Assembly (NCBI GenBank): GCA_007376445.1
Contig: VMGF01000003.1
Coordinates: 31,024 to 95,023, forward strand
Length of the DNA stretch: 64,000 nt
Direction of reading: 5' to 3'
From: Parcubacteria group bacterium Gr01-1014_3
GTDB taxonomy: Bacteria > Patescibacteriota > Minisyncoccia > UBA6257 > WO2-44-18
Shown here: in pieces, positions 5,204 to 55,684 of the stretch
Layout: the number at the start of each line of letters is the position of its first letter
How positions within the stretch are numbered: position 1 is the stretch's first letter
Made by a program: the position numbers and the translations under genes
Notes under the pieces: generated by a model
Told to the model about the DNA's origin: nothing
Database searches by the model: none
What the model saw: the letters and a program-made list of their open reading frames with translations, nothing else

Positions 5204-6059
5204 AACTTGGAAGCTTTCTGGAAACGCCGACGGCGAATGGGGGTGTTAATGGGGCGCTATCACCAGCCGCAAACGACTTCCGGCTTGCTGGCCACGCCGG
5301 AAGTAGCTTTAAATCGAGCTCAATCGAAACAACCAACTCGGCCACCTGACTATGATCAAGTTTGTCCATACAGCCATAAGAGATTTTTTCCTCAAGAACT
5401 GAAATCCCTTTTGTGCGCATGATAAACACCTTGACCAATTCTTCGATAAAATAGGATTGCTCATATCCGTCGGGTAAATGGTCTAGCCGCGATTTCCAAT
5501 CATATCCGCCGCCAACCCACAAATGCGGCAGAATCGGCATCAGATACCAGCGAAGATCGCAGGTCTGTTTCTGCAAACGATCTGGCTGAATTCCAAAATG
5601 TACAAAACCAAATGACGCGTAAAGCATAGATACACGCCTGGGCTTCATGGGGTGCTGGCCATCGCTATCAAGGCCCAGAAAAGCGATATGCGTCTCGCGA
5701 ATAGTTTTGCCTTTCACAAAGGGGCAGGATGAATTGAGAACATCCGCGTCCCATGGGAATTTCGCCGCCGCGGCAAGCATGGTCTTATTAAACTTCACCT
5801 GGAAGTGTCTTTCCCAATCTTCCACGCCGAAGAAGTTCTCGGCCATAACGGCTTTCACGACCTTGTAGTCCATCGGCATATCCACTCCGCCACGGATCAT
5901 GCACTCGGCAACCTTTTTCGCGTACATCTTATCGGTCGCCAATCTCTCGAGGTGCTTCACTTCCATGCCCTGATCCACCAGCGCATCCATACAATTCAAA
6001 AGCAGCTTAAAGCTCATATTACCAACCGCGCGATCATCTTTCTCTGGCTTCACAGCCAC
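5202..6059 (-). CDS. hypothetical protein (285 aa), C-terminus low-complexity and GC-rich
   Basis: ORF only; 3' 100 nt unusually GC-rich, containing hairpin ACTTCCGGC...GCCGGAAGT. Confidence 0.35.
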   Translation of the reverse strand: MAVKPEKDDRAVGNMSFKLLLNCMDALVDQGMEVKHLERLATDKMYAKKVAECMIRGGVDMPMDYKVVKAVMAENFFGVEDWERHFQVKFNKTMLAAAAKFPWDADVLNSSCPFVKGKTIRETHIAFLGLDSDGQHPMKPRRVSMLYASFGFVHFGIQPDRLQKQTCDLRWYLMPILPHLWVGGGYDWKSRLDHLPDGYEQSYFIEELVKVFIMRTKGISVLEEKISYGCMDKLDHSQVAELVVSIELDLKLLPAWPASRKSFAAGDSAPLTPPFAVGVSRKLPS

Positions 6060-6109
6060 CTCCTCAAATAGTTAAAGTTCCGACTAGATATTACAATAAT
6101 AACTTGCTT

Positions 6110-6240
6110 TTGACAATATAAATTTTCAATTCGCAATTTTACAATTTTCAATCAATTTCCAAGCATGAATTTTCAAATAGTTTGAACTTTCGGTCTTGAC
6201 CCTTGAATGAAAATTGGTATTTGAAAATTGAGAATTAAAG
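6110..6240. repeat. intergenic repeat family A copy 1 (CAATTTTCAAT...GGTCTTGA...GAATGAAAATTGGTATTTGAAAATTGAGAATT)
   Basis: Near-identical blocks at 44075-44190, 47365-47516 and 50210-50290. Confidence 0.7.
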
Positions 6241-6245
6241 AACAT

Positions 6246-7154
6246 TTAAACTTTCAAATATCTTCGCACCGCAATCGTGCTAGAAACTCCGCCAAGAAAA
6301 ATACCAAATAAAAGCTGATAGCCAAACAATATCGGTAAATTACCAAAGAAGTAATTTGTCAGATTCATCTCCGGAATGAACGCGCCGACATAAGGCGAGG
6401 CCAGCGAAACTATCGGCGCCGCGATCATCAAGCTAATTACCGCGGCAATAGCTCCGTAAATAATGCCGTTCACCAGATAAGGCCCATTGATATACATATT
6501 AGAGGAACCCACCAGACGCATAATGCCGATCTCTTCGCGGTTGGAATAGATAGCGAGGCGGATGCTGTTGAAAGTCACCAAGGCGGCGATTAGCGCCAAG
6601 AACATCGTGGCTACCAAGCCAGAGTTCTGGAAGGTATCGATCAGGCGCGCCAAGCGATCAATCGCCAGGCGGTTTTCTGTATAGCTAACCTTTTCAATAA
6701 TCGAAGCCAGATTTTCATTGTCCAAATATTCCACGATGTTGGCATACTGCCCAGGATCATTCGCCTTAACATTCAACGCTGCGAGCAAAGGGTTGGCCTG
6801 CAATTCCGCGAGAGCCTGGGAAACGGTCGGATCATCTTTGTGGTCGTTTTTAAATATCTCTAAGGCCTTTTCTTGAGAAATATATTCCACGCTTTTTACT
6901 TCGACGAGACTTTCCATCGCCCGCTCTAATTTCAAAATTTCATCCTCTTTAGCTACATCTTTAAAATAAACGCTGATATCAATCTTGTCCTGAATTGAAG
7001 TCACCGCCACGCGGGAAATGGCGCTGAAAATGATCAGTCCGTTAAAAACTATCAGAGCCAAGATTAAGACAGCGATGGTGGTGATCGAAAGCCAGCCATT
7101 GCGGCTGAAGCTTTGAAGTCCAAACTTAATTATTCTCGCGAGTGTAGTTGCCAT
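6246..7154 (-). CDS. ftsX: cell division permease FtsX
   Basis: 4-TM topology with periplasmic domain; follows ftsE. Confidence 0.85.
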   Translation of the reverse strand: MATTLARIIKFGLQSFSRNGWLSITTIAVLILALIVFNGLIIFSAISRVAVTSIQDKIDISVYFKDVAKEDEILKLERAMESLVEVKSVEYISQEKALEIFKNDHKDDPTVSQALAELQANPLLAALNVKANDPGQYANIVEYLDNENLASIIEKVSYTENRLAIDRLARLIDTFQNSGLVATMFLALIAALVTFNSIRLAIYSNREEIGIMRLVGSSNMYINGPYLVNGIIYGAIAAVISLMIAAPIVSLASPYVGAFIPEMNLTNYFFGNLPILFGYQLLFGIFLGGVSSTIAVRRYLKV

Positions 7155-7882: not shown

Positions 7883-8293
7883 TTAAGCTACCGACGAATT
7901 CAAAATACGTCGATATTTAACTCCCTCTCTCGTAAAATATAGCAGAATTCCTAGCTTTAGACCAGCGCTTCGTAAATAAGTCAAAACCTGCTGAGTATGC
8001 ACATAACCAAACTTTTGAACGACTTTTAACTCCAAGAGAATTTTGTCATCTACAATAAAATCCGCAAAATACTTACCTATATTTTTAGCTTTGTATTCGA
8101 GCGGAATATAAACTTCCCGCTTAAATTCTAGGCCTTGTGTTTTCAATTCTTCAGCTAAAGCTCTTTGATAATCCTTTTCTGTAAATCCCCAACCTAATTC
8201 ATTAAAAACATCAAAAACAGCGCCTACAATTTTATAACTTAGCTCCGGTAAAATTACCTTATCAGCTTTTTCTATTTGCAATATTTTGTTCAT
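7883..8293 (-). CDS. GxxExxY family protein (PD-(D/E)XK nuclease-like)
   Basis: ELGWGFTEKDYQRAL carries the G-x-x-E-x-x-Y signature; paralog of 19019..19423. Confidence 0.8.
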   Translation of the reverse strand: MNKILQIEKADKVILPELSYKIVGAVFDVFNELGWGFTEKDYQRALAEELKTQGLEFKREVYIPLEYKAKNIGKYFADFIVDDKILLELKVVQKFGYVHTQQVLTYLRSAGLKLGILLYFTREGVKYRRILNSSVA

Positions 8294-9041: not shown

Positions 9042-9852
9042 TGATTTTGAAAAGTTTCGCGGCGTTTTTATACATTACATATTCCATATCCGTCTTGGAA
9101 ATTCCCAGCTTTTTCACATATTTAATATATTCTTTCGGACCAGCGAGCGGCCAATCCGTGCCGAAAATAAGTTTACGGGGCGTCTGTGAATACGCGATCA
9201 GCTCCTTGATCTTCTGTATCGTCATTTTGCCATAAGGCGAGTTAAACCCGTCATGCAAAAACAAACCGGAAATATCGGCATAAACATTCGGATTCCTATA
9301 CAGAACTTCGGCGCAGTCCATCATCCAGGGATTCCCAAGATGCGCTATCACTATCTTTAGATTCGGAAAATCTACTGCCACCTCATCAACACCGAGCGGA
9401 TGCGCGTATTTCACTTTCGCGAAAGTCTTGTAGGCGAGCGTGTCTCCTGTATGGAAAATTACTGGTACGCCCAGTCGGTCGCACATTTCATAGATCGGTC
9501 GCGCGACCGAATCGCCTGGATAGAAATGCTGATAACCGAGGTAAAGTTTAACTCCGACGATCTTTTTCAGCCGGATCAAAACCTCCAGCCGATCCAAATC
9601 TTGCTTGGTGTATTCAGACACGTTCAAAGAACCAATCACATGCAGATTTGAAAGTTCTTCGGTTAATTTGATAAGCGTGTCCGTGGAGGGACCAGTGCCA
9701 TCCTCGCCTCGCCAATTCGCGATCACCAACGCGTGATCCACTTTATTCTTCTTCATCTCCGCTAAAAGAGCGCTTCTTATTTCTTCATAGGACTTTTTAG
9801 CGAACGGAGTATTTTCCAGCTTTGTTATGTGTGTGTGCGCGTCTATGATCAT
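9034..9852 (-). CDS. metal-dependent amidohydrolase (amidohydrolase-2 / TIM-barrel family)
   Basis: IDAHTH N-terminal metal-binding motif, HTGD, IAHLG motifs. Confidence 0.65.
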   Translation of the reverse strand: MIIDAHTHITKLENTPFAKKSYEEIRSALLAEMKKNKVDHALVIANWRGEDGTGPSTDTLIKLTEELSNLHVIGSLNVSEYTKQDLDRLEVLIRLKKIVGVKLYLGYQHFYPGDSVARPIYEMCDRLGVPVIFHTGDTLAYKTFAKVKYAHPLGVDEVAVDFPNLKIVIAHLGNPWMMDCAEVLYRNPNVYADISGLFLHDGFNSPYGKMTIQKIKELIAYSQTPRKLIFGTDWPLAGPKEYIKYVKKLGISKTDMEYVMYKNAAKLFKINV

Positions 9853-9854
9853 GG

Positions 9855-9927
9855 AGCCACCTCCCGGAATCGAACCGGGGACCTTTGCTTTACGAAAGCA
9901 CTGCTCTACCAGCTGAGCTAAGGTGGC
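9855..9927 (-). tRNA. tRNA-Thr (anticodon CGT), copy 1
   Basis: Manual cloverleaf on minus strand: GCCACCT...AGCTGGTAGAGC...loop TTCGTAA...TTCGATT...AGGTGGC; CCA may be encoded (9852-9854). Confidence 0.7.
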
Positions 9928-9934
9928 TTTGACG

Positions 9935-9966
9935 TTATATTATAACATTTCCCGAGTTTTTCCAAA
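9935..9966 (-). promoter_or_regulatory. sigma70-like promoter for tRNA-Thr copy 1 (TTGGAA -35, extended TGTTATAAT -10); duplicated at 10236-10280
   Basis: Minus strand reads TTGGAAaaactcgggaaatgtTATAAT 8 nt before the tRNA 5' end. Confidence 0.55.
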
Positions 9967-10075
9967 GAAAATAAGAGCAGGTGACGAGAATCGTCCGGTC
10001 ATACGACCGGACAGCCCAGTCGGATGACTGGGCGAACTCACGTCTCTACTTTACCCCGCACCTTTTCTCGATTAG

Positions 10076-10147
10076 AGCCAGAGAGAGGAGTCGAACCTCC
10101 AACCCCTCCCTTACGAAGGGATTGCTCTGCCATTGAGCTACTCTGGC
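10076..10147 (-). tRNA. tRNA-Thr-like (anticodon CGT), copy 2, flanked by 35-bp inverted repeats
   Basis: GCCAGAG..GCTCAATGGCAGAGC..loop TTCGTAA..GGAGGTTCGACTCCTCT..CTCTGGC; 27-43 mismatch. Confidence 0.6.
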
Positions 10148-10218: not shown

Positions 10219-10284
10219 GTCTCTCTTTATTTAAATACTAGGTCATATTATAACATTTTGCGGATTTTTTCAAAGAAAATAATG

Positions 10285-10359: not shown

Positions 10360-10938
10360 TTAATACTCGCTATTCACCACTACTTCTTTACCATTCCAAG
10401 ATAAACTTGGCAATAAAATCATCACGCGGGCTAAGGCGCGGGCATCGGTTAGCCAGACTGCCAATTCTTTTTTCTGAAGAGTTAGCCGCCCCTCCAGCAC
10501 TTCCCTCTCCGCTTGAGGCACCAAAACCATCTTCCGAAACTCCGACAAACTCACTCCATAAAGACTCTCTACTGATTCGGCCAACTCAGGACTTTGCAGA
10601 TTCGGAGCGCTTAATTTATTTTCCACCAACTGCGCGAGATCGTTGCCCACGATCGTCTTGAGTCCGCCGTTAATTAAAATATTGTCGATCGCGCGGTTCA
10701 AAAGCTGGCGATGAAGCTCCCGCTTAAAGCCCTCGCTTTTTACATCAGTCCCCTGCGCTCCAAGAATATTTCCATAATATTGATAAGCCGCCACAAAGTC
10801 GTTATTCATTGATCTCGCCAGGATCATCTTCGCGTTCACGAACGCCACCGGATAATAACCAAAATGAACAAGGTAGTATCCGCCAAGGCCTAAAAACAAA
10901 ATTGAAAGTAGAATTATAAAGTAGTGGTTAGTTTTCAT
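10360..10938 (-). CDS. membrane-anchored protein, possibly SurA-N/PpiD-like periplasmic chaperone domain
   Basis: Single N-terminal TM, helical extracytoplasmic domain; weak similarity only. Confidence 0.35.
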   Translation of the reverse strand: MKTNHYFIILLSILFLGLGGYYLVHFGYYPVAFVNAKMILARSMNNDFVAAYQYYGNILGAQGTDVKSEGFKRELHRQLLNRAIDNILINGGLKTIVGNDLAQLVENKLSAPNLQSPELAESVESLYGVSLSEFRKMVLVPQAEREVLEGRLTLQKKELAVWLTDARALARVMILLPSLSWNGKEVVVNSEY

Positions 10939-12030: not shown

Positions 12031-13851
12031 CTACTTTTTTAACAATTCCTTAAAAATGTTCGCGGGAATTTTTATTTGAGAGCCTTCACCGCGTTCTTTC
12101 AAGCGCTCCTTGCCACGTTGCTGCTTCTTCCAAAGCTTCATCTTGCGGGTGCGATCACCGCCATTTTTTCCGAAATCACCGAGATCTTTCTTGAGCGCCG
12201 GAATCGTCTCGCGCGCCACAATTTTACCGCCCACGACCGCCTGCAAGGCTTGAGTAAACTGCTGGGCTTGCAACAATGTCTTTAATTTCTCCACAGTCAT
12301 CCGGCCTTCCCGTTCGATCTCTTTTTTTGGAATAATTCTGGTTAAACCCGGGATCGCGTTGGCGGCCACGTGGATCTCCAGCTTCGCCACATTAGCCAGA
12401 GCATATCCGACCAGCTCATAACTCAAAGAGGCAAAACCATTAGAAACAGACTTCAATTTGTCGTCGAGATCACTGATCAGATCGGCGAGCGGCAGTTTCG
12501 CGGAAATTAAAATATTGTTGCCGAAATTCTTGGTTTCAATTTCGCTGAATCGGAAAATTTCCTTTAGCTGTAAGATCGCGCCAAGATATTTTGTCGGAGT
12601 TAATATTTCGATCTTTGAGATCGGCTCCTCCACCGCCTCCGCGTCGTTCGGAAAATCTTTCGGATTGGTGATCACCCTCCATTCACCCTTTTCTTTCACT
12701 CGATAAGCCACGGATGGGAAGCTGTGCACGGTTTCGATCTTAAACTCGCGCGCCAAACGCTCGGCGGTAATTTCAAAATGAAGCCGTCCTAAAAATCCGC
12801 CCTTGAATCCCCGGCCCAGAACTTCGTTCATATCCGCTTCAAATTTCAGCGAAGCGTCAGTGAGGCGTAGCTTTGATAGCGCTAGTTTCAATTCGTCATA
12901 TTGATCGGTATCTTCCGGATAAAATGACACGAAAACCACCGGCTTTGGCTCGCGATAACCAGGCAAAGCCATCTTTTTTACTTCCGCGGAAAGCGGTTGC
13001 TTCGAGGAAAGCAGCGTATCTCCGATTTTCAGCTTATCGGAATCCTTAATACCCGTGGCGATATAGCCGATCTCCCCGCTTTGAATAGATTTAGAAGGTT
13101 TTGGCTTCGGCGCGAAGTATCCTACTTCTTTTGCTTTGGCGGTGGTGTTGGTAGCGTTTAAAAAGATGTTGTCGTTTTCATTAAAGGATCCATTAAAAAC
13201 CCGGATATGAGCCAGGACGCCCTTGTGTTCGTCGTAATAAGAATCAAAAACTAAAGCGCGGGATAATCCGGCAATAGTTTGCGGTTCGCTCGGGGCCGGA
13301 ATTTTTTCCACGATTTTCTGCAAAAGAGTTTCCACGCCAATGCCCGTCTTTCCGGATACTTTCAAAATTTCTTCAGGATCCAAATTTAATAATAAACTCA
13401 AATCGTTTATGGCCGCTTCGATCTGATCCGGATCGGCCGCGTCAACTTTATTCACCGCGCCGATGATCGTCAGTCCGGACTTCCGGGCATTCTCAAAATT
13501 CGCCAAAGTCTGCGCCTGGATACCCTGCGTGGCGTCAACTAAAAGAACCGCGCCCTCCACGGCCGCGAGCGCGCGCGAAACTTCATAACCGAAATCAGAG
13601 TGCCCTGGCGTATCAATCAGATTCAGGACATAGGGTATAGCGTTTAGGGTATAGGACATTCTGACTGGAGCCATTTTGATGGTGATTCCTCTCTCCCGTT
13701 CCAACTCCAGCTGATCCAAAAACTGCGGCTTCATGAGCCGCTTTTCAATCGTGCCAGTGGATTCCAAGAGCCGGTCCGCCAAAGTGGACTTTCCATGGTC
13801 TATGTGCGCGATTATGCAGAAATTCCTGATGTGACTAGTCAACTGGTTCAT
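12031..13851 (-). CDS. lepA: translation elongation factor 4 (LepA) with Lys-rich C-terminal tail
   Basis: AHIDHGKST, DTPGH, NKVD GTPase motifs; LepA-specific C-terminal domain. Confidence 0.9.
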   Translation of the reverse strand: MNQLTSHIRNFCIIAHIDHGKSTLADRLLESTGTIEKRLMKPQFLDQLELERERGITIKMAPVRMSYTLNAIPYVLNLIDTPGHSDFGYEVSRALAAVEGAVLLVDATQGIQAQTLANFENARKSGLTIIGAVNKVDAADPDQIEAAINDLSLLLNLDPEEILKVSGKTGIGVETLLQKIVEKIPAPSEPQTIAGLSRALVFDSYYDEHKGVLAHIRVFNGSFNENDNIFLNATNTTAKAKEVGYFAPKPKPSKSIQSGEIGYIATGIKDSDKLKIGDTLLSSKQPLSAEVKKMALPGYREPKPVVFVSFYPEDTDQYDELKLALSKLRLTDASLKFEADMNEVLGRGFKGGFLGRLHFEITAERLAREFKIETVHSFPSVAYRVKEKGEWRVITNPKDFPNDAEAVEEPISKIEILTPTKYLGAILQLKEIFRFSEIETKNFGNNILISAKLPLADLISDLDDKLKSVSNGFASLSYELVGYALANVAKLEIHVAANAIPGLTRIIPKKEIEREGRMTVEKLKTLLQAQQFTQALQAVVGGKIVARETIPALKKDLGDFGKNGGDRTRKMKLWKKQQRGKERLKERGEGSQIKIPANIFKELLKK

Positions 13852-18974: not shown

Positions 18975-19018
18975 AGGGTTACGAATAACGAATTTATACT
19001 AATTAACGAATAATCGAA

Positions 19019-19423
19019 TTATAATTGATTTATAATCCTCTTGAATACCACGCCATCATTACTGAATGTAATCAAAATTGCAAGCCGTAAATTATTTAAT
19101 TTTAAATATTCGAGAACCTGATCAATGTGGGACTTAGAAAATCGTAGGCCACGCTTTATTTCTACAATGATTTTGTCATCGACTAAAAAATCTAAAAACT
19201 TTCTGCCAACAACCTCGTCTTGATACTTTATCGGACAATTAACTTGTTCAAGAAAGGATATTCCAGAACCTTTTAATGCCTGAGCCAGTGCCTTTTGATA
19301 ATATTTCTCGAGCAGACCCGGTCCGATTTCATTGAACACATCAAAAGCCCGGCCGATAATTTTATAGCTCAACTCTGGATAAATAAGATCATCTCTTTTT
19401 AAAACCGAAGCCTGTTTAATCAT
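19019..19423 (-). CDS. GxxExxY family protein (PD-(D/E)XK nuclease-like), second paralog
   Basis: EIGPGLLEKYYQKAL signature; flanked by inverted CGAATAACGAAT / ATTCGTTATTCG repeats. Confidence 0.8.
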   Translation of the reverse strand: MIKQASVLKRDDLIYPELSYKIIGRAFDVFNEIGPGLLEKYYQKALAQALKGSGISFLEQVNCPIKYQDEVVGRKFLDFLVDDKIIVEIKRGLRFSKSHIDQVLEYLKLNNLRLAILITFSNDGVVFKRIINQL

Positions 19424-19462
19424 AGATTCGTTTATTCGTATATTCGCCCGATTCGTTATTCG

Positions 19463-21875: not shown

Positions 21876-22796
21876 TCACTGCCTTACTAACTTTAAAACT
21901 CCGCCGCTCCAACTCGAACCCATCGTCCCCTTCTCCAGGGTAGTGAAGATCTGCGCCCCCGCGGATTTGAGACGAGCGAGCGCTGCCGGCGTGGGGTGGC
22001 CGTAAGTATTTTTGCCAACTTCGATGATCGCGGCCTTCGGTTTTACCGCGGCTAAAAATTCCGCGCCGCTGGAAAATCGAGAACCGTGATGCCCGACCTT
22101 CAAAATATCCGCCGATAGATCGTATCTTTTCATCAACTCGTTTTCGACATTAAAGCCAATATCTGCCGTAAATAAGATCTTGAAGTTCTTGTCGCGAAGC
22201 ATAGTCACCAAGCTGGTGTCGTTTAGCTCGCTACTTAATAGATCACCGCTATTCGGAGAAAGAATGCCTAAGGCCGTATCCTCGTGAATTATCCGATCTT
22301 CCTCCGCTAATTGAATATACGGAACGCCCCGATTCTGAAGCTCGTTGATTAGAGTCTGATAAGCTCCGGCAGTGCCTTTTCTGCCATTCCCAATAAACGC
22401 TCCGACTTCATAATTTTTCAGCACATCAATAAACCCTCCGAAGTGGTCTAACTGGGGATGGGTCATCAAAAGCATATCGATATACCGGTCCTGGGGCGGT
22501 AAGACTTTGGCCAGCGCCGTTAACACTTTGCCATCCGGATTCCCAGCATCGATCAATAACTTCGGGCCACCAGGAAAAATAATCAGCTGGCTATCCCCTT
22601 GCCCGACATCCAGAAAATAAATTCTGGCACTATCACGCGTGATAGTGCTTGCTTGGATAATCTGATACCAGACAATTCCGTCCAGCAATAATAACGCCGC
22701 TACAATATATAAAACCCAGTTAGACTTTTTTGCTTTGGAATTTTTGTTCAGCATAATAGACAAGTCCAATAAGCGCGGCCCAATAAAGCACGCCAT
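21876..22796 (-). CDS. comEC: ComEC C-terminal metallo-beta-lactamase domain protein (split from N-terminal part)
   Basis: HxHxDH-type MBL motifs (HPQLDH, HHGSR); likely starts at internal Met near 22754. Confidence 0.7.
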   Translation of the reverse strand: MACFIGPRLLDLSIMLNKNSKAKKSNWVLYIVAALLLLDGIVWYQIIQASTITRDSARIYFLDVGQGDSQLIIFPGGPKLLIDAGNPDGKVLTALAKVLPPQDRYIDMLLMTHPQLDHFGGFIDVLKNYEVGAFIGNGRKGTAGAYQTLINELQNRGVPYIQLAEEDRIIHEDTALGILSPNSGDLLSSELNDTSLVTMLRDKNFKILFTADIGFNVENELMKRYDLSADILKVGHHGSRFSSGAEFLAAVKPKAAIIEVGKNTYGHPTPAALARLKSAGAQIFTTLEKGTMGSSWSGGVLKLVRQ

Positions 22797-25376: not shown

Positions 25377-26573
25377 TTATTTAATTATTCCCCCGCCAAG
25401 CATCGTACCTTTCTTATCATAAAAAACTGCCGATTGGCCGGGGGCTACAAATTTCATCGGACGATGAAATTTTAGTTCACCAGTTTTAAGTTTAAAGTTT
25501 AAAGTTAGAACAGCGGGTTGAAGAGGCTGGCGGTAGCGGACGCGGGCGGAAACCGGAATAGCTGTAAGATTGCCGCGGCGCTTTGCGCCTCGCAATGACA
25601 GGGGTTCGAAAAATAAATTAACATCGGTTAATACGACTTCTTTCCGGTAAAGTGCCGGGTTGTCTTCGCCTTCGGCGACGACCACGATATTTTTCTTTAT
25701 ATCTTTACTGGCCACATAAAGCGGCTTGTCGCTACCGCCGACGCCAAGGCCGTGGCGCTGGCCGATCGTATAGAAATGGGCGCCGTGATGCTCTCCTATC
25801 TCGTTGCCGTGAATATCTAGGATTGCTCCCTTCTTCGGCTTAATGTATTTCGCCAAAAAATCCGGCAAAGAAACCTGACCCAAAAAGCAGATGCCCTGCG
25901 AATCCTTTTTCGTGGCATTGTGCAGGCCAAACTTTTCAGCCAGTTTTCGAACCTGCGGCTTTGTGTAATCCCCAACCGGGAACAAACAGTGCTTCAACTG
26001 CTCGGGCTTGAGTGTCCACAAAAAATAAGATTGATCCTTGTTCTTGTCCTTAGCGATCGCTATCATTCTAACTTTCAACTTTGAACTTGGAACTTTTAAC
26101 TCGCGCAGTAGCGCGTAATGCCCCGTCGCCACGAAGTCCGCGCCCATCTCCAGGGCTTTTTTATAAAATAAACCGAATTTAATTTCCTTGTTACACATCA
26201 CATCCGGATTCGGCGTGATCCCTTTTTTATATCCATCCACCATATACTTCACCACTAGGTCTTTATATTCCTGCTCGTAATCAAAAGCGTAAAACGGGAT
26301 ATTCAGATGCTCCGCCGCCCGGCGCGCGTCTTCGGCGTCCTCTGCGGCACAACCATCCACATTGAAACACTTCAAGTGAACTCCCACGACATCGTAGCCT
26401 TCCTTTTTCAGCAATGCCGCGGCTACGGACGAATCAACGCCGCCTGACATACCTACAAACACCCTTCGGCTTGGTTCGGCTACGCTCACCACGAGTCGCT
26501 CAGGGTAAACTATTTTTTGCTTAGAGTTCTTCTTCACGGAATATATTTTACGATAAATTTTCCAAATTGGCAA
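25377..26573 (-). CDS. mnmA: tRNA-specific 2-thiouridylase MnmA, with two in-frame low-complexity insertions
   Basis: VGMSGGVDSSV PP-loop, catalytic Cys region, YFLW motif. Confidence 0.9.
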   Translation of the reverse strand: MPIWKIYRKIYSVKKNSKQKIVYPERLVVSVAEPSRRVFVGMSGGVDSSVAAALLKKEGYDVVGVHLKCFNVDGCAAEDAEDARRAAEHLNIPFYAFDYEQEYKDLVVKYMVDGYKKGITPNPDVMCNKEIKFGLFYKKALEMGADFVATGHYALLRELKVPSSKLKVRMIAIAKDKNKDQSYFLWTLKPEQLKHCLFPVGDYTKPQVRKLAEKFGLHNATKKDSQGICFLGQVSLPDFLAKYIKPKKGAILDIHGNEIGEHHGAHFYTIGQRHGLGVGGSDKPLYVASKDIKKNIVVVAEGEDNPALYRKEVVLTDVNLFFEPLSLRGAKRRGNLTAIPVSARVRYRQPLQPAVLTLNFKLKTGELKFHRPMKFVAPGQSAVFYDKKGTMLGGGIIK

Positions 26574-27805: not shown

Positions 27806-29012
27806 ATTTGGACTTGGCTAACTTTTCTCGAATCTTTCGGAATAGATTTTCCATAAACCAAAGGTTATGAGCGGTAGCCAAGATCGGGCCAAGCATCTCC
27901 CCTGCGCGGAAAAGATGAGCCAAATATGAACGGCTATAGTTTTTACAGGTATAGCAGCCGCACTTTTTGTCGATCGGATTTTTGTCTTCCAGATTTTTAG
28001 CGAGTTTTAAATTAAATCTTCCACCCTCCACCAAAGCCGCGCCATTCCTGGCCAGCCGGGTCGGGGCCACGCAATCAAAAGTATCCACGCCGGCCATTAC
28101 GGCTTTTTCTATATCCTCCGGAGAGCCGATGCCCAAAAGATGCCGAGGTTTTTCCTCTGGTAAAAGCGGCATAATCCAGTCCAGGATTTTATACATATCC
28201 GACTTGATCTTGCCCATCGCGCCGCCAATACCCACACCATCAAAACCTAAATTGCCGATTACTTTGGCTGATTCTTTGCGCAGATCCTCAAATACACCAC
28301 CCTGAATCACGCCATATAAAGCCTGCCGCCCAATGGGATTGGGCGAGCCTCGCCCAGAATGGGCGGGCTTTTTGTGTTTGAAAGCTTCCAGACAACGGAC
28401 CGCCCAGCGATGCGTGCGCTTCATAGAGCGCTTGGTATATTCATAGTCGTGAAGCGGAGAGGTGCACTCATCAAAAGCAAAAATTAAATCAGCGCCAAGA
28501 TTTTCCTGAATTTGGATAGATTTTTCCGGGCTGATGAAATGGCTCGAGCCGTCGATATGCGAGCGGAACTCCACGCCCTCCTCGCTGATCTTGGTCAGTT
28601 TCTCTTTTTTAGGAATCGCGTGCTCCGCCTCGCCCTCGCGTAAGACCCCGGTCTTTTCTCCGGGGAAAATATTGGCAACTTTACCCACGCCATGCTCCAG
28701 GGCCGCGCCTAAACTGAATACCTGAAAACCGCCGCTGTCCGTCCAGATCGGCCGGTCCCAATTCATAAACTTATGAAGTCCGCCCATTTTTTTAACTATC
28801 TCATCGCCCGGGCGGAGATAGAGATGATAGGTATTACAAAGCAAAGAATCAGAGCCGATTTCTTTAAGTTGATCCACGGTCAGGCCCTTGATGGCCGCCT
28901 GTGTGCCAACCGGAATAAAAGCCGGCGTATGGATCACTCCATGCGCGGTTTTTATAATGCCTAATCTTGCTCGAGTCCTATTTGATTTTTTAATAATTTG
29001 AAAGATTCCCAT
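27804..29012 (-). CDS. tgt: queuine tRNA-ribosyltransferase
   Basis: ARLGIIKTAHGVIHTPAFIPVGT N-terminus, catalytic Asp region, CCxC...H zinc site. Confidence 0.9.
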   Translation of the reverse strand: MGIFQIIKKSNRTRARLGIIKTAHGVIHTPAFIPVGTQAAIKGLTVDQLKEIGSDSLLCNTYHLYLRPGDEIVKKMGGLHKFMNWDRPIWTDSGGFQVFSLGAALEHGVGKVANIFPGEKTGVLREGEAEHAIPKKEKLTKISEEGVEFRSHIDGSSHFISPEKSIQIQENLGADLIFAFDECTSPLHDYEYTKRSMKRTHRWAVRCLEAFKHKKPAHSGRGSPNPIGRQALYGVIQGGVFEDLRKESAKVIGNLGFDGVGIGGAMGKIKSDMYKILDWIMPLLPEEKPRHLLGIGSPEDIEKAVMAGVDTFDCVAPTRLARNGAALVEGGRFNLKLAKNLEDKNPIDKKCGCYTCKNYSRSYLAHLFRAGEMLGPILATAHNLWFMENLFRKIREKLAKSK

Positions 29013-29015
29013 AGA

Positions 29016-29092
29016 TGTAAATTTTCAATTTTAAATTTTGAAATTTTAATTTAAATTAAAATTTATAATTTCAAATTTTAAATTATTGAGTA
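29016..29092. promoter_or_regulatory. AT-rich palindromic leader element family B copy 1 (contains perfect palindrome AAATTTTAATTTAAATTAAAATTT), directly upstream of tgt
   Basis: Near-identical blocks upstream of rplL (35869-35951) and rnc (46806-46876); no Shine-Dalgarno. Confidence 0.6.
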
Positions 29093-29102
29093 ACAGAAAA
29101 AA

Positions 29103-29651
29103 CTATTTCCTAACCACTACCGGTTTCACTTTGGTTAAATCCACGATCTTGGAACCCTTGGTCTTACGGTTAATACCGGCAAAAATGACCGCGTCAATTA
29201 AGTTGGCCTTTTCGCCGAAAACTTCCTTGTAGGTACGAGGATCACTGATCGGTTTCTGGCCGGCGATATTCGCGCTGGTAGCCACGATCGGTTTATCGAA
29301 ATGCTGGAATAACTTTTTAATTTTAGCATTCTTGGAAATGCGGAAAGCCGCGGATTTCTTTTGGGTAACCAGCGGGGAAAGATTCTTAGCTTTGAAAATA
29401 AAGTTGGTCGGCACCTTCGCGGACTTCACGATCTTCTTCGGCTTATCGGTCACGATCGCGTAGTCCATGAGCATGTTGATATCTTTGACCAGAAGCGGGA
29501 AAGACTTGCCGATCGGGCGATTTTTAATGCGATAAACCTTCAAAACTGCCACTGGATTGGTGGCATCACAAAATAGGCCATAAACGGTCTCGGTTGGGTG
29601 AATAACTACCCCTCCGGCGTTCAAAATTTGAGCAATTTTAGAGGCATCCAT
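29103..29651 (-). CDS. tsaC: L-threonylcarbamoyladenylate synthase (TsaC/YrdC)
   Basis: HPTETVYGL motif, YrdC fold length. Confidence 0.85.
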   Translation of the reverse strand: MDASKIAQILNAGGVVIHPTETVYGLFCDATNPVAVLKVYRIKNRPIGKSFPLLVKDINMLMDYAIVTDKPKKIVKSAKVPTNFIFKAKNLSPLVTQKKSAAFRISKNAKIKKLFQHFDKPIVATSANIAGQKPISDPRTYKEVFGEKANLIDAVIFAGINRKTKGSKIVDLTKVKPVVVRK

Positions 29652-29705
29652 AGTATTCGCATATTATACTAAAAAACCGCCCCTTTGTAAAGGGACGGTT
29701 AAATA

Positions 29706-33492: not shown

Positions 33493-34383
33493 TTAGATAA
33501 GCTGTGCCGCCCGTAACTTAGCCGAGCGCGACCTTGGGTTGGTCATAATTTCTGGGTTGGTGGCAATAATGGGTTTTTTTGTCAGGGTTTTCAGTTTCCC
33601 GGATTTTTCGAGGTCACGGAAAGAGTTTTTAACGATCCGGTCTTCCAGGGAATGGAAAGAGATAATGGCGACCCGGGCGCCTGGCTTCAGGATTGTTTCC
33701 AGATTATTTAAAGCTTGCTGTAGATTCTCTAATTCCCGGTTGGCGTAGATGCGGAGCGCCTGGAATGTCCTGGTGGCCGGATGAATACGCCCGCGTTCGT
33801 AGTTTTCCGGAACTGCCGCCTTAACTATTTCGGCCAGCTGCTTGGTAGTCTCGATAGATTTCTTTCTGCCCGCCGCTTTAATGGCCTTGGCAATCTTTGG
33901 CGCGTAACTCTCTTCGCCAAACTCGCTGATGATTTTCGTAAGCTCGGCCTCGGAAAGTTCTTTTAAAATTTCTTGGACTGATTTTGAAGTGGCGCTATAA
34001 GTCATGATCAGCGGCTCGTCGGACTGGAAGCTGAATCCCCTGCCTCCGCCGATCTGTTCGGAAGAAAATCCCAGATCCAAAATCAACCCATCGGCTTTGT
34101 GTAATTTTTTACTTTCCAAAATCGCCGGAAGGTCGGCGTAATTCTCGCCGGTCTTTTCCCAGTCTATTCCCAATACATGCCCGGTGAGACCAACTTTTTC
34201 CCGCAGTGCCGCGGTGTGGCCCTCAGCTCCGGCTGTGCCGTCAATAAAAAATTCTCCCGGCTTCGGATCCAGAACTTTAATAACCTCGTCGAGCAGAACT
34301 GGAACATGTTTAGAATTAGGAATCATGAATAAGGAATTATGGTTGATTAGTTTTATTTGTTTGGGGTGATTTTGAAAATTCAT
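33493..34383 (-). CDS. rsmH: 16S rRNA (cytosine1402-N4)-methyltransferase
   Basis: MraW family SAM-binding motifs (DGTAGAEGH). Confidence 0.9.
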   Translation of the reverse strand: MNFQNHPKQIKLINHNSLFMIPNSKHVPVLLDEVIKVLDPKPGEFFIDGTAGAEGHTAALREKVGLTGHVLGIDWEKTGENYADLPAILESKKLHKADGLILDLGFSSEQIGGGRGFSFQSDEPLIMTYSATSKSVQEILKELSEAELTKIISEFGEESYAPKIAKAIKAAGRKKSIETTKQLAEIVKAAVPENYERGRIHPATRTFQALRIYANRELENLQQALNNLETILKPGARVAIISFHSLEDRIVKNSFRDLEKSGKLKTLTKKPIIATNPEIMTNPRSRSAKLRAAQLI

Positions 34384-34394
34384 AATTCTTGATT

Positions 34395-34826
34395 CTAAAT
34401 TCCTAATTCTCCGAGCTTCTCAGCGATATCGTCGGATGAAGCTTCGGTTTTTGATTTGTAAGATTTCCAACTTGCCTCATCCCAGATTTCGATTCGGTCA
34501 TACAGACCCGCGAAGATTGCCTGTTTTTTTAAAGACGCGTAGTTTCTCAAGTATTCTGGAATTAAAATTCTTCCCTGATTATCAAACTCAACTTCGCTCG
34601 CGCCCGCGAGCATCAAACGAGCGAATGCCCGAGAATCGGATTTCATAAAAGACATGCCGGCAATTTTGGCGGTTAATTTTTCCCAGCTTTCTTTTGTAAA
34701 TACAAACAAGCAGTGATCCAATCCGCGCGCGATAATTGCTCCATCGCCAAGCTGCGGCCGAAATTTAGCCGGTAAAGCTACGCGTCCTTTATTGTCTAAA
34801 CTATGTGTATATTCGCCGATGAACAT
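34395..34826 (-). CDS. mraZ: transcriptional regulator MraZ
   Basis: Duplicated DxxxR motifs, MFIGEYTHSLDNKGRVALP. Confidence 0.9.
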   Translation of the reverse strand: MFIGEYTHSLDNKGRVALPAKFRPQLGDGAIIARGLDHCLFVFTKESWEKLTAKIAGMSFMKSDSRAFARLMLAGASEVEFDNQGRILIPEYLRNYASLKKQAIFAGLYDRIEIWDEASWKSYKSKTEASSDDIAEKLGELGI

Positions 34827-41864: not shown

Positions 41865-44048
41865 CTATTCCAGTTTTACGGAGAGTAATCGCGAAGTTCC
41901 ATCGCTTCCCATCGTAACGCCATACATGATATCCGCCGATTCCATGGTGGCGCGATTATGCGTGACAATAATAAACTGAGTTTTGGAAGAAAAATCTTTA
42001 ACCAGTTCCGCGAACTTTCGCGCGTTGCGTTCGTCCAGGGCGGCATCTACTTCATCAAGCACCAAAAACGGCGGTGGACTGACGGAAATCAAGGCAAACA
42101 AAACCGCCACGGACACCAAGGCCTTTTCTCCGCCAGAAAGCATTTCGAGGCCACTGATCTTTTTGCGAGGAATACTGATGCCCATCTCAATGCCACCGTG
42201 GTCGAATTTATGGTCCTCCTCCCTTTCCGCCGCCCCCTGCCTACCGGCAGGCAGGTCCTCCACCATCGCTTCCTCGGCTTCACTTATAATTTTCTTTTCT
42301 TTTTTAACCAGAGTTAGCTTTGCTGATCCGCCGTCGAAAAGCAGTTTGAAATATTTATTGAATTCTTCGTTGATGGACTTGAGCGCGCTGTTAAATTCTC
42401 CGTGAATTTTCTCATCCAAGTCATTAATAAGTAAGGCGAGATCGGCTGAAGCTTTTTTCAAATCTTCATTTTGCGCGGACAAAAAATTGTAGCGTGATTC
42501 AGTTTCCTGCGCTTCTTTAACTAGCGCCGGATCAAGATCACCAATACCAGCCAACTCCGCGCGCAGCTTGAACATCCGCTTCTCCATCTCGGCGAAATCG
42601 CTAGTCTTTCCGCCCGAGGCGGATCCTCGTTGGGAGGAAAATTCATGCAATCGGCGGCCAGATTGCATCGCCAGGTTTTCCAGTTCTTTCCGGCGGATCT
42701 CTACTCTTTCTCTTTCAAATAAAATTTTATTCTTCTCGGTATCCAGACGCGCCATCTCATCTTTTTTCTGCTCGACTAATTCAAAGGCTCTCCGGAAAGT
42801 GCCGGTGAACTGCTTGAGCGTGTCGTTGAGGTGGCTTTCCGCCTCCCTAAGCTTATTTAAATCAGCGTCCACCGTCTGAATATCCGCCATCGCCTTTTTC
42901 TTAGCACTATCCAATTCAGCGATCTTTTCATCCCGGCCGGAATTATCTGCCTGCAAGCTGTCATCGATACGCTTGATCAGCTTTTGCAAAAGCGACTTCA
43001 CTGCGCCAAAATCGCCTTCATTTAATACCGCGCCAATCGCGCCCTTCACTTCCTCAAGCAGTTTCACCGCCTCCGCGGCTTTAATTTCGCTCTTCGGCTG
43101 AGCCGCCAAAAACTCCATCTGCGCCTCCAAACGGCCAAGTTCTTTTTGAAGTAAAGATTTCCGGTTTAGAACATCGCTCTGCTGTTTTTTAAAATCGTTG
43201 AATCCTTTGTCGTCGGAAGGCTGAGCTTTTTCTACTTTATGTAATTCTTCCTGTAATTTTCTTAATTCTTGATTCTTGATTCCTACTTCCTGATTTATTT
43301 TTTGGATCTGCGGTTCAATGGCGGAAAAATCCGATTCGATCACGCCGAGTCTTCCGCTGAAATAATTTTCCTCCAAAGTTCGCAATTCTTTTTCGACTTC
43401 GGCATGCTTTTCCCAACGCGTGGTCTGGCGTCTTAATAACCGAAGATGTGGCAGTATCTCCTGCACCATCGCCTCCACCTTATCGAGGTTGATCTTGGTA
43501 TTCTTCAGTTTATTCTGCGCCTCATGCTTTTTGAGCTGATACTGACGAAGGCCGAGTACCTCTTCGATCATCTCGCGCCGTTCTTCCTGGCTAGCCCGCA
43601 CGAATAGATCGCTACTGCCCTGGTTTATGATAGAAAACCCTTTTGTGCCGAGGCGGGCTTTGGCAAAAAAATCGATAATGTCTTTTAAGCGGACCTCCGA
43701 GCCATTTAATAAATATTCCGAAGTGCCATCGCGGCTAATCTTGCGGGTAATCGCGATCTCGGTGTAATCAATGGGAAAAAACCGGGTGCTGTTGTCGAAA
43801 ACAATGGTCGCCTGCGCCATACCAACACGCGGGCGCTCCGGCGTGCCAGCGAAGATCAGATCTTCCGCTTTGGCGCCACGGATATTTTTCGCTTCGCGTT
43901 CACCCAAAAGCCAACGCAAAGCGTCGATGACATTCGATTTACCAGAACCATTCGGACCAACAATAGCCGTGATTCCAGCCGGAAAATCGAGCGTGGTTTT
44001 GGAAACAAATGACTTAAAACCCACCAGCTCTAACTGCTTAAGTAGCAT
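41865..44048 (-). CDS. smc: SMC-family chromosome segregation ATPase (short, 727 aa)
   Basis: N-terminal Walker A GPNGSGKSN, long coiled coil, C-terminal LSGGEKALVSVAVLFAL...LDEVDAALDE. Confidence 0.8.
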   Translation of the reverse strand: MLLKQLELVGFKSFVSKTTLDFPAGITAIVGPNGSGKSNVIDALRWLLGEREAKNIRGAKAEDLIFAGTPERPRVGMAQATIVFDNSTRFFPIDYTEIAITRKISRDGTSEYLLNGSEVRLKDIIDFFAKARLGTKGFSIINQGSSDLFVRASQEERREMIEEVLGLRQYQLKKHEAQNKLKNTKINLDKVEAMVQEILPHLRLLRRQTTRWEKHAEVEKELRTLEENYFSGRLGVIESDFSAIEPQIQKINQEVGIKNQELRKLQEELHKVEKAQPSDDKGFNDFKKQQSDVLNRKSLLQKELGRLEAQMEFLAAQPKSEIKAAEAVKLLEEVKGAIGAVLNEGDFGAVKSLLQKLIKRIDDSLQADNSGRDEKIAELDSAKKKAMADIQTVDADLNKLREAESHLNDTLKQFTGTFRRAFELVEQKKDEMARLDTEKNKILFERERVEIRRKELENLAMQSGRRLHEFSSQRGSASGGKTSDFAEMEKRMFKLRAELAGIGDLDPALVKEAQETESRYNFLSAQNEDLKKASADLALLINDLDEKIHGEFNSALKSINEEFNKYFKLLFDGGSAKLTLVKKEKKIISEAEEAMVEDLPAGRQGAAEREEDHKFDHGGIEMGISIPRKKISGLEMLSGGEKALVSVAVLFALISVSPPPFLVLDEVDAALDERNARKFAELVKDFSSKTQFIIVTHNRATMESADIMYGVTMGSDGTSRLLSVKLE

Positions 44049-44074
44049 ACCTTAATTCTAAAACACAAAACTCC

Positions 44075-44190
44075 AATTTCCAATTATCAATTTTCATTCA
44101 ATACGCAATAACCAAACTTTAAACGGTTTAAAAATTGGTTCTTTGAAAATTCAATGAAAATTGCAAAATTGAGAATTGAAAATTAAAGGA
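44075..44190. repeat. intergenic repeat family A copy 2
   Basis: CAATTTTCATTCAAT ... ATTCAATGAAAATTGCAAAATTGAGAATTGAAAATT inverted arms. Confidence 0.65.
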
Positions 44191-44194
44191 GCCC

Positions 44195-46111: not shown

Positions 46112-46804
46112 CTACTCCTCCCATTTCGTCAGAGCCTGCTTGGCCGCGTCTACTTCCGCGTCTTGCTTCGCCTGCCCGCTACCGGTAGCTAAGTGCTTTT
46201 CACCGATATACACGCCAACCCGGAAAACTTTCTGGTGATCTGGACCGCTCTCTTCGAGAACTTTATAGATCGGCGTGATCTTGAATTCGCTCTGCGCCTT
46301 TTCCTGTAAGTTGCTTTTCGCGTCTTTGATCAGTCCTTTTTTGAAAACTTCTTCGAGATGCTCCAATACGAAAGTCACTACGAATTTCTTAGCCGGCGCG
46401 TAGCCGTCGTCTAAATAAATCGCGCCGATAACCGCCTCGATCGCGTTCGCCAAGATCACATCCCTGGCGCGGCCGGTATCTTTTGCTTCTCCGCGGGACA
46501 TCAGCACGTATTTTTCAAGATCAATGGATTTCGCCACCGTGGCCATCATCACGTAATTCACCAGCGCCGCGCGGATCCCGGTCAGCGGGCCCTCTTTATA
46601 ATCTGGGTACCTATTATATAGCTCCTCGGTGACGATCAGCTCCAGCACCGCGTCGCCCAAAAACTCCAGCCGTTCGTTGTGAGGTACTTCCCACTTTGGG
46701 TTTTCATTTAAATACGAGCGGTGCGTCAAAGCCTCCTTCAAAAGGTCTTTGTTCTTAAAAACATAATCTACGTTTTTTTCAAACGTTTTAATATTTTGTA
46801 ACAT
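46112..46804 (-). CDS. rnc: ribonuclease III
   Basis: ERLEFLGDAVL catalytic signature; C-terminal dsRBD. Confidence 0.9.
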   Translation of the reverse strand: MLQNIKTFEKNVDYVFKNKDLLKEALTHRSYLNENPKWEVPHNERLEFLGDAVLELIVTEELYNRYPDYKEGPLTGIRAALVNYVMMATVAKSIDLEKYVLMSRGEAKDTGRARDVILANAIEAVIGAIYLDDGYAPAKKFVVTFVLEHLEEVFKKGLIKDAKSNLQEKAQSEFKITPIYKVLEESGPDHQKVFRVGVYIGEKHLATGSGQAKQDAEVDAAKQALTKWEE

Positions 46805-46805
46805 C

Positions 46806-46876
46806 AGACAAATTTTAAATTTTTAATTTTGAAATTTTAAATTAATTTAAAATTTTTAATTTATAATTGAAAATTA
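46806..46876. promoter_or_regulatory. AT-rich palindromic leader element family B copy 3, directly upstream of rnc
   Basis: TTTAAAATTTTTAATTTATAATTGAAAATTATT core. Confidence 0.6.
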
Positions 46877-47350: not shown

Positions 47351-47364
47351 GTTTTTATTATTAC

Positions 47365-47516
47365 AGAAAAATTCTCAATTTTCAAATACCTGTTTTTGAA
47401 TTTCCAAATATCAATTTTGCAATTTTCAATCAATTTACAATGAATTAATTTTCAAAACCATTGATCCTTAGGTCTTGATGATTGAATGAAAATTGGTATT
47501 TGGAAATTGAAAATTA
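47365..47516. repeat. intergenic repeat family A copy 3 (longest)
   Basis: Aligns along about 110 nt with copy 1 at 6128-6240. Confidence 0.7.
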
Positions 47517-47766
47517 CTTAGAGGATCCGTAGTGGGCGCACTGTGGGCAGGTTTTGTGCGACAAAACCGGACCCTGGCAATTCGGGCATACGGAAATATT
47601 CAGCTTCTTGAGGGCCATATGCGAACGCCTGCGCCCCGTCTTCCCTTTTGAATGATGTTTTGTTGGTACACCTCCCATAAATTTATTAGTTAGATTATAT
47701 AGCTATTTCAGATTTTCGTCAACTTTGACTTTCAAATACACCGAGGCGTAAAATTAAGGGAGTTGT

Positions 47767-50182: not shown

Positions 50183-50209
50183 ACAATCGTCCCCGCAAAT
50201 GCGGGGACT

Positions 50210-50290
50210 TTTAATTTTCAATTCTCAATTTTGCAATTTTCAAATTTGGAAATTGAATGAAAATTGGTAATTGGAAATTGATAATTGGTG
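50210..50290. repeat. intergenic repeat family A copy 4 (short)
   Basis: CAATTTTGCAATTTTCAAATTTGGAAATTGAATGAAAATTGGTAATTGGAAATTG. Confidence 0.65.
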
Positions 50291-50324
50291 TTGTATAGTC
50301 TTGGTAGTTACTTGAAAGGGCTCA

Positions 50325-54310: not shown

Positions 54311-54347
54311 AAAAGCACCCATTTCTGGGTGCTTGCTAGTCACTATT

Positions 54348-55015: not shown

Positions 55016-55047
55016 CCACCCCACTATCACATGTGATAGTGGGGTGG
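55016..55047. promoter_or_regulatory. 32-bp perfect palindrome CCACCCCACTATCACATGTGATAGTGGGGTGG overlapping the promoter (TATAAT at 55048-55053) of the HTH gene
   Basis: Palindrome immediately followed by TATAAT and an 11-nt leader. Confidence 0.7.
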
Positions 55048-55557: not shown

Positions 55558-55585
55558 CAGCCACTATCACATGTGATAGTGGCTG
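55558..55585. promoter_or_regulatory. 28-bp perfect palindrome CAGCCACTATCACATGTGATAGTGGCTG downstream of the HTH gene
   Basis: Third copy of the palindrome family. Confidence 0.7.
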
Positions 55586-55592
55586 GAAAATA

Positions 55593-55671
55593 AAGTCCTG
55601 GTCGTAAGCGGGAAAATGAGCTGGCGTAACGGCGAACAGAAACTCATCTGTAATAGCGCGGTGGAAATATA
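55593..55671 (+). pseudogene. duplicated 3' end of dnaE (encodes KVLVVSGKMSWRNGEQKLICNSAVEI*), direct-repeat partner of 54231-54310, with its own terminator at 55668-55700
   Basis: About 85% nucleotide identity to the real dnaE 3' end. Confidence 0.65.
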
Positions 55672-55684
55672 AATGCTCCGGTAA

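Follow-up and report, generated by a model that had tools for sequence, protein, structure and literature searches.

Runs of tandem heptamers close to start codons have been described in marine Beggiatoaceae, some Cyanobacteria and Bacteroidetes, where repeats of the unit TAACTGA have been proposed to be bound by S1, Csp or CsrA, and where polymerase slippage has been put forward for heptamer repeats (MacGregor 2015, PMC4679880). Here, we describe a comparable arrangement in a 64,000-nt stretch of contig VMGF01000003.1 of Parcubacteria group bacterium Gr01-1014_3 (hereafter, the window), in which three almost pure A/T blocks built of 7-nt units precede the genes tgt, rplL and rnc on the minus strand; we refer to these blocks and their further copies as family B. 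Like the TAACTGA repeats, they consist of tandem 7-nt units a few nucleotides away from starts lacking a Shine-Dalgarno (SD) sequence, ribosomal-protein operons included, with occasional copies in open reading frames (ORFs), a sporadic occurrence across phyla, and close relatives that lack them and have shorter intergenic regions (PMC4679880). An excess of period 7, a mostly intergenic location and likely growth by slippage are further shared with the heptanucleotide simple-sequence repeats of Mrazek et al. 2007 which, as far as they are summarized in PMC4679880, are single-unit direct arrays, unlike the dispersed composites seen here. The TAACTGA repeats, too, are almost always direct, whereas the unit here is AAATTTT/AAAATTN and the arrays are inverted about a dyad, forming a composite of ~65 nt with irregular unit order that is copied whole. 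With a different unit and an inverted arrangement, the blocks belong to the broad heptamer class only, and not to the strict TAACTGA family. We found no description of TAACTGA-type repeats in candidate phyla radiation (CPR) bacteria in the literature searched. The short tandemly repeated repetitive (STRR) sequences of cyanobacteria are heptamer repeats as well.

A second group of reference systems comprises the Correia/NEMIS MITEs (miniature inverted-repeat transposable elements), the repetitive extragenic palindromes and bacterial interspersed mosaic elements (REP/BIME), and the Rickettsia palindromic elements, which are short (<150 nt), dyad-symmetric and interspersed in both orientations. 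Family B resembles all of these in being co-transcribed and in a presence that varies among close lineages, and the Rickettsia elements additionally in that related heptad arrays occur in frame within proteins. Unlike them, it shows tandem heptads, a weak hairpin, no recognised target-site duplication, no GTAG/CGTC tags and no cognate transposase in the window; we set the REP/BIME class, whose imperfect palindromes of 20-40 nt bear a GTAG or CGTC tag and go together with a RAYT transposase, aside on the grounds that neither tag occurs in the near-pure A/T blocks and that no Y1-transposase domain is present in the window. As unstructured A/U-rich flanks 5′ of SD-less starts, the blocks also recall S1-dependent leaders and the SD-poor initiation of Bacteroidetes, yet those flanks are conserved in genes or phyla, while family B appears to be a recent insertion, absent at orthologous junctions. 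Finally, the tandem interspaced guide RNA (TIGR) arrays of TIGR-Tas systems, which do occur in CPR bacteria, lie beside a Nop-domain gene and are made up of tandem units of ~36 nt that contain dual spacers and box C/D motifs (PMC12045711). Such an array is ruled out by the period of 7 instead of 36, the motifs, and the neighboring genes, which are those of Sua5/TGT, L10/L12 and NusB/RNase III.

The three blocks are copies of one lineage-restricted heptad-repeat element. Each of them extends all the way from the stop codon of the upstream gene to the ATG of the downstream one (spacer lengths 69-90 nt), separating Sua5/YrdC from TGT, L10 from L12, and NusB from RNase III; all six identities were assigned by Pfam, and the positions given in the initial annotation held. 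In pairwise Smith-Waterman alignments, the blocks score 79-105, compared with 32-35 ± 6 for dinucleotide shuffles, 0/1000 of which reach the observed value (z 7-12). Since the blocks are periodic, we used the shuffling of whole heptad units as a harsher null, which still gave z = 4.2-9.8, with the observed score reached in 0-2/2000 shuffles. Because the real pairs exceed the heptad-unit shuffles, we conclude that the copies share a common ancestry and not merely a style. The initial annotation, which had suggested a single sequence family, had itself raised the possibility that the blocks align no better than random AT-rich intergenic DNA. Both nulls speak against this, as does a family-B profile, which passes over the other AT-rich intergenic stretches of the window (at 21423, 24917, 56109 and 63528) and shows clear polarity (34-37 bits forward vs 11-17 reverse). 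The blocks also stand out by composition, with a GC content of 6-10% vs 47% for the window: a scan for at most 5 G+C per 40 nt returned seven stretches in the 64 kb, with AAATTTT/AAAATTT character in these three only. Since they are seen in independent assemblies of several samples, the blocks are not assembly artefacts.

Tandem Repeats Finder assigns period 7 to all three blocks, and 7 is the sole enriched lag in the lag scan described below. Read on the coding strand, the element starts with A3T4 units (AAATTTT, AAATTAT) and switches about a central dyad to A4T3-N units (AAAATTT/C/G); over its ~65 nt, it contains one to three G or C, everything else being A and T. The perfect 24-bp palindrome claimed for the tgt copy is present and coincides with the switch point. 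The rnc copy carries one, too, centred at 46843/46844, and in the rplL copy the perfect dyad is only 6 bp. Because AAAATTT pairs with itself at 6/7 positions, most of the dyad symmetry comes with the unit. Similarly, the block ends are dyad-related and resemble those of a second element family described below (TAATTTTCAATT...AATTGAAAATTA), but the A4T3 unit itself is nearly self-complementary. In the three window copies, the element ends 5-9 nt ahead of the ATG, and no 4-nt core of AGGAGG (AGGA, GGAG or GAGG) is found upstream of these start codons, in line with the reported lack of an SD sequence. The ending -ACA-ATG, noted for every block, is limited to copies 1 and 2 (tgt and rplL), copy 3 (rnc) terminating in TTTGTCTGATG. 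At its opposite end, the rnc element overlaps the nusB stop codon, the TAA of which lies inside the element's AATAATTTT end. Public gene calls place the start of L12 nine codons 3′ of the first ATG (115 vs 124 aa; 35853-35868 in the window), and the A/T block seems to mislead rplL start prediction.

By its L12 and NusB homologues, the organism groups with Candidatus Harrisonbacteria-like Patescibacteria of groundwater, and two contigs (L027 and L028) match the window at 100% identity. Among the more distant contigs, L005/L007 (L12 79%, NusB 76% identical) have a 32-nt overlap of nusB and rnc, a TAATG common to the Sua5 gene and tgt, and a 17-nt gap between rplJ and rplL; nusB and rnc also overlap in L034 (NusB 83% identical), and the Sua5 gene and tgt abut in L008. 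Other relatives carry different elements at the same places. The Sua5-tgt junction of L029, L031 and L032, which encode an identical Sua5 protein at 85-97% DNA identity, holds an unrelated 62-nt G+C-containing imperfect palindrome, and the nusB-rnc junction holds a 98-nt element of a G+C-containing palindrome family in L033 (NusB 96% identical) and CTAGTSG heptads in a 72-nt spacer in L035/L036 (NusB 81% identical). The alternative junction elements of the relatives all fold significantly (z −4.4 to −6.9). At the rplJ-rplL junction, the family-B copy is retained, with one TAA unit fewer, in L001-L004, L012 and L015, whose rplJ-rplL DNA is 96% identical. The orthologous junctions in L005/L007, L008, L034, L029-L032, L033 and L035, empty in syntenic relatives and occupied by unrelated hairpin elements in sister populations, rule out the conserved leader that the initial annotation had envisaged. 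Comparison of these junctions shows the element to be an insertion inside operons, at places where the genes ancestrally overlapped or abutted.

The G+C palindrome family (GTCATTCTGA...GAAGAATC paired with GATCCTTCG...CTCAGGATGAC) was seen in L029 (1205-1266), L031, L032 and L033 (902-999), that is, at the Sua5-tgt and nusB-rnc junctions of 85-97% identical populations, with z −4.4 and −5.3; the window lacks it. L033 contains 9-nt units (TTCATAAAG.../...CTTTATAAAC) between rpmF and nusB (322-418), and in L035 CTAGTSG heptads lie ahead of rnc and of rpmF (10484-10561 and 9770-9800).

A search for further copies, as the initial annotation had recommended, yielded one additional site. Scanning metagenomes returned the source species, this new site in contig L016, a Bacteroidota look-alike, and chance-like matches in very AT-rich DNA; in a viral scan, the sole match was a 23% GC giant-virus contig which is the same as metagenome match L024 and likewise looks like chance. 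The fourth copy lies between infB and rbfA and is ~93% identical to the rnc copy over 74 nt, irregular units included. As to its setting, it departs from the proposed leader: the copy is inverted relative to rbfA (score 126 reversed vs 78 direct) and ends 20 nt from the ATG. All copies are intergenic and near an SD-less start, the one in L016 included, and the junction comparisons show a sporadic distribution with absence from orthologous sites in close relatives, as is typical of the heptanucleotide-repeat class, and the four sites, one of them inverted, with the tgt and rnc sites differing in sister lineages, also show the dispersal in both orientations and variable presence of a MITE. To judge from these comparisons, the element would be young and occupy at least four operon junctions of one Harrisonbacteria-like groundwater population (Sua5-tgt, rplJ-rplL, nusB-rnc and infB-rbfA).

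As for transcription, the genes for Sua5, L10 and NusB each have a 10-12/12 sigma-70-type promoter match directly upstream, beside the preceding unit's terminator, and no terminator was found between any of them and its block. Because the upstream genes are promoter-driven and no terminator precedes the blocks, we place the latter inside two-gene operons. Family B is, in our judgement, rather likely a dispersed heptad-repeat insertion that has replaced translational coupling and is tolerated as an unstructured A/U-rich RNA flank. The ancestral gene pairs would have been overlapping or near-abutting, and hence translationally coupled. After insertion, the block would be transcribed within the operon mRNA from the strong promoter ahead of the upstream gene, and would become the unstructured, SD-less 5′ flank of the downstream cistron. 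Since the blocks abut the starts and lack an SD sequence, tgt, rplL and rnc must initiate on A/U-rich RNA without SD pairing, which might occur through direct ribosome entry involving S1- or Csp-type binding, or through re-initiation after termination. Persistence of the element would then reflect a composition harmless to initiation, and not co-regulation of the three genes. The heptads probably grow by replication slippage, and the composite might be copied to new sites through mobilisation in trans or recombination. To our knowledge, heptanucleotide simple-sequence repeats are not known to replace translational coupling at operon junctions.

The lack of an SD sequence is not in itself distinctive of these three genes, because most listed starts share it: in a mechanical ORF list, approximately 16/69 starts have a 4-nt SD core and some 53/69 do not. 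Many genes possess a TATAAT-like box 6-12 nt 5′ of the ATG; judging by this, mRNAs with no leader or a very short one seem to be frequent, and the main mode, in this organism. In the relatives, tgt, rplL and rnc are likewise SD-less and depend on overlap with, or proximity to, the upstream gene.

This same frequency of −10 boxes 6-12 nt before an ATG lends some support to a different proposal, already contained in the initial annotation as a shared promoter, namely that each block provides an internal sigma-70-type promoter plus short leader, giving tgt, rplL and rnc short-leader or leaderless transcripts of their own. Candidate hexamers do exist, as TTAAAA-17-TAAAAT-7-ATG in the rnc copy and TTTAAA-16-TAAAAT in the tgt copy, and the terminal heptads of the second element family give the −35 box of the SMC and nusB promoters. 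We nevertheless regard such promoters as unlikely. The matches reach 9/12, which equals the expectation for A/T-only DNA, as opposed to 10-12/12 and a G at −35 position 3 in real promoters; the best hexamer pairs of copies 1 and 3 do not occupy homologous positions, and near the rplL ATG there is none. Moreover, the rbfA copy runs in reverse orientation and stops 20 nt short of the ATG, and the junctions of the relatives are empty or contain different elements. Homologous, gene-directed hexamers are thus not what the blocks share, and strong promoters are found ahead of the upstream genes.

A role in RNA processing or stability, with an A-U hairpin or A/U-rich strand cut by RNase III or another endonuclease to give a 5′ end near the AUG, and autoregulation of RNase III at rnc, seems quite unlikely, too. 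RNase III is known to act on Correia elements and on the Escherichia coli rnc leader, and in phage T7 early mRNA cleavage takes place at hairpins between cistrons. One family-B copy does lie within the rnc leader, and the other junction elements, in the window and in relatives, form significant hairpins that end just before the start (z −2.7 to −6.9). With −6 to −12 kcal/mol, however, the folds of family B are weak and do not surpass those of dinucleotide shuffles (z −1.66, −1.30 and −0.39), as the palindromic look is largely built into the A4T3 unit; they contain no G-C or G-U pairs. The blocks match no Rfam family, six tRNAs being the sole matches in the window at the gathering threshold. 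Together, the shuffle-level folds and the lack of an Rfam match rule out a stable hairpin or riboswitch-like leader, and exclude structured cis-regulatory RNAs of the L10-leader or rnc-leader type.

We consider it very unlikely that the blocks act as DNA-level sites, whether as targets of a dimeric regulator or nucleoid-associated protein, or as cruciforms, to co-regulate the genes or mark recombination hot spots. Two copies contain perfect 24-bp palindromes. At the tgt junction, the window and L029 pass from 91-100% DNA identity on the upstream side to 73-92% on the downstream side, which would fit with a recombination breakpoint. On the other hand, the downstream genes lack a common function (tRNA modification, ribosomal stalk, RNase and ribosome-binding factor), relatives do not conserve the sites, the perfect dyad of the rplL copy spans just 6 bp, and no regulator gene is associated with the blocks. 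The operator palindrome suggested by the initial annotation as a co-regulator of the three genes is further disfavored by the inverted fourth copy, and the palindrome adds no RNA stability beyond what composition provides. Least probable of all is the independent origin of each block in place by slippage, without copying between sites, which would fit with heptamer simple-sequence repeats being the commonest, slippage-attributed long repeats of many bacteria (PMC4679880) and with look-alike (AAATTTT)n(AAAATTN)n arrays in a Bacteroidota contig and in the 31% GC contig L014, but not with the rarity of heptad-unit shuffles that match the observed scores or with the shared irregular units of the ~93% identical rnc and rbfA copies.

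Several points weigh against a tolerated insertion that replaces translational coupling. The known insertion sites number four, and three of the four copies have the same orientation and lie 5-9 nt from the ATG, which could reflect selection for a directional function. By inspection, no consistent flanking direct repeat that would represent a target-site duplication was seen at the four copies, the relatives being too diverged or carrying another element, and Pfam detects no transposase in the 64-kb window. Read-through and SD-independent initiation are steps that we infer from the DNA, and the promoter-like geometry of the rnc copy resembles that of the genome's leaderless promoters. Lastly, every other junction element of the clade forms a strong hairpin, a hint that dyad symmetry itself may matter.

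The family-B profile also matches a second family in the window, named family A, with the best match in element A3. Family A comprises 100-150-nt elements in which inverted ATTTTCA / TGAAAAT heptad arrays surround a loop (RNA z −2.5 to −4.1). The rpmF-nusB spacer measures 148 nt in the window vs 27 nt in L007, and the FtsH-SMC spacer 146 nt in the window vs 41-44 nt in L034 and L035; family-A sites are insertions as well. The last heptads of A2 and A4 contribute a −35 box, TTGGAA or TTGAAA, to the promoters of SMC and nusB; the corresponding −10 box, at a spacing of exactly 17 nt, lies beyond the element and ends 6 nt 5′ of the ATG.

Period-7 arrays extend further still. When 28-nt segments were scanned at lags 4 to 12 with a minimum of 22 self-matches, the window showed 7 stretches at lag 7, with 0 at every other lag and 0 in shuffles; there are 5 such segments in the 8.4-kb sister contig L029, and 0 in L005, L008 and L034. 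Some of the arrays are coding. In TrmD, in-frame (AAAAGTT)n and (AAAACTT)n arrays (38152-38185 and 38491-38519) encode Lys/Leu-rich loop insertions of 11 and 13 residues, which amount to 3- and 8-residue insertions vs L005. MnmA has period-7 arrays in the window (25482-25506 and 26070-26101) and, in L029 (4785-5497), five different in-frame arrays, some of them adjacent inverted pairs such as (GTCATTA)4/(CAATTAC)4, located at loops that differ between the two lineages. Within the broader class of period-7 arrays that repeatedly occupy gene junctions and even housekeeping-protein loops in this clade, family B is the member that is A/T-only and folds weakly. At the mraZ-rsmH junction (34300-34415, minus strand), inverted (GAATTNN)n/(NNAATTC)n arrays form a hairpin of −22.8 kcal/mol (z −4.7), the 3′ arm of which overlaps the probable start region of rsmH.

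Outside Patescibacteria, the look-alike mentioned above, (AAATTTT)2-AAATTAATT-(AAAATTN)4, is located between murG and murC (GTG start) on a contig that encodes a Cytophagales-like Bacteroidota MurG and has four heptad arrays besides. In L023, intergenic heptad arrays, the look-alike among them, were noted at 2846-2979, 5493-5533, 7000-7039 and 13160-13237. The same look-alike block is present in L011 and L022, and one record labels the contig as a Bifidobacterium breve metagenome-assembled genome, evidently mis-binned. As a doubtful but broader idea, some Patescibacteria and Bacteroidota might possess a process that writes and turns over arrays in 7-nt register, usually as inverted hairpin pairs, at gene junctions and protein surface loops, faster than species diverge; it may couple to translation from SD-less, processed or A/U-rich flanks. 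Candidate writers would be a polymerase or primase that slips in a 7-nt register, or a dedicated mobilising or heptad-binding protein.

Table. Family-B blocks, associated promoters and family-A elements in the 64,000-nt window.
Feature	Position	Strand	Remarks
tgt spacer	29013..29102	-	Sua5/YrdC TAG 29103-29105 to tgt ATG 29010-29012
Family-B element in tgt spacer	~29020-29084	-	9.9 units, period 7; nhmmer 37.4 bits, E 6e-10
Perfect 24-bp palindrome, tgt copy	29041..29064		AAATTTTAATTTAAATTAAAATTT; A3T4 to A4T3 switch point
rplL spacer	35869..35951	-	rplJ (L10) TAA to rplL (L12) ATG 35866-35868
Family-B element in rplL spacer	~35877-35940	-	9.3 units; preceded by a (TAA)5 run
rnc spacer	46805..46873	-	nusB TAA to rnc ATG 46802-46804
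Family-B element in rnc spacer	~46810-46875	-	~8 units (7.9)
Sua5 promoter	29663..29691	-	TTTACA-17-TATAAT; overlaps terminator 29675-29700
rplJ promoter	36599..36628	-	TTGACA-18-TATAAT (12/12); adjoins terminator 36610-36638
nusB promoter	47357..47385	-	TTGAAA-17-AATAAT; -10 box ends 6 nt before ATG, leaderless geometry; -35 box within last heptads of A4
SMC promoter	44083-44055		-35 box from A2
Family-A element A1	6109..6237	-	RNA fold z -3.6
Family-A element A2	44048..44194	-	FtsH terminator to SMC ATG; z -3.9
Family-A element A3	50203..50306	+	Family-B profile match E 2e-5
Family-A element A4	47370..47517	-	rpmF to nusB; z -3.6 to -4.1

The window contains further repeats in addition to families A and B. 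A 26-bp perfect palindrome, AGCCACTATCACATGTGATAGTGGCT, occurs four times, two copies being exact (22625-22650, 37352-37377, 55019-55044 and 55559-55584); it resembles a terminator hairpin 3′ of a sigma-factor gene, and a Trp-repressor-like ORF (55065-55544) lies between two of the copies. Nearby, a 94-nt direct repeat of the dnaE 3′ end (54218-54311 and 55580-55673; 79% identical) brackets a 1.27-kb segment with two small ORFs, which looks like an insertion that duplicated the gene end. Two small PD-(D/E)XK nuclease (PF13366) genes at 7883-8293 and 19019-19423 may be selfish or mobile, the second being flanked by short tandem repeats (19010-19037 and 19414-19446). A 61-nt repeat lies 3′ of both SMC and L11 (41795-41855 and 62485-62545), and a 65-nt SD-containing leader before a phosphoribosyltransferase gene (41611-41675) recurs in L001 (1520-1584) and L029 (3394-3458). 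Of two tRNA-Thr(CGT) genes (9852-9927 and 10075-10147), one shares a 41-nt upstream repeat (9934-9974 and 10242-10282; 85% identical) with a neighboring tRNA-Gly gene.

The genomes of CPR bacteria are very small, tightly packed and usually regarded as repeat-poor. In the present one, young repeat insertions would split essential operons (rplJL, nusB-rnc, Sua5-tgt and infB-rbfA), and in sister lineages other elements would have entered these junctions independently, indicating fast junction turnover. The blocks reveal no new regulon. In practical terms, they serve as a warning for annotation, since gene callers mis-start rplL, and they seem to break metagenome assemblies, which we suspect because most contigs of the species are 1-3 kb long and several end near a block. 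Beyond this, family B adds a fourth, very distant group to Beggiatoaceae, Cyanobacteria and Bacteroidetes as bearers of heptamer repeats before start codons, and its junctions would constitute natural experiments in the translation of internal cistrons that lack SD pairing or coupling.

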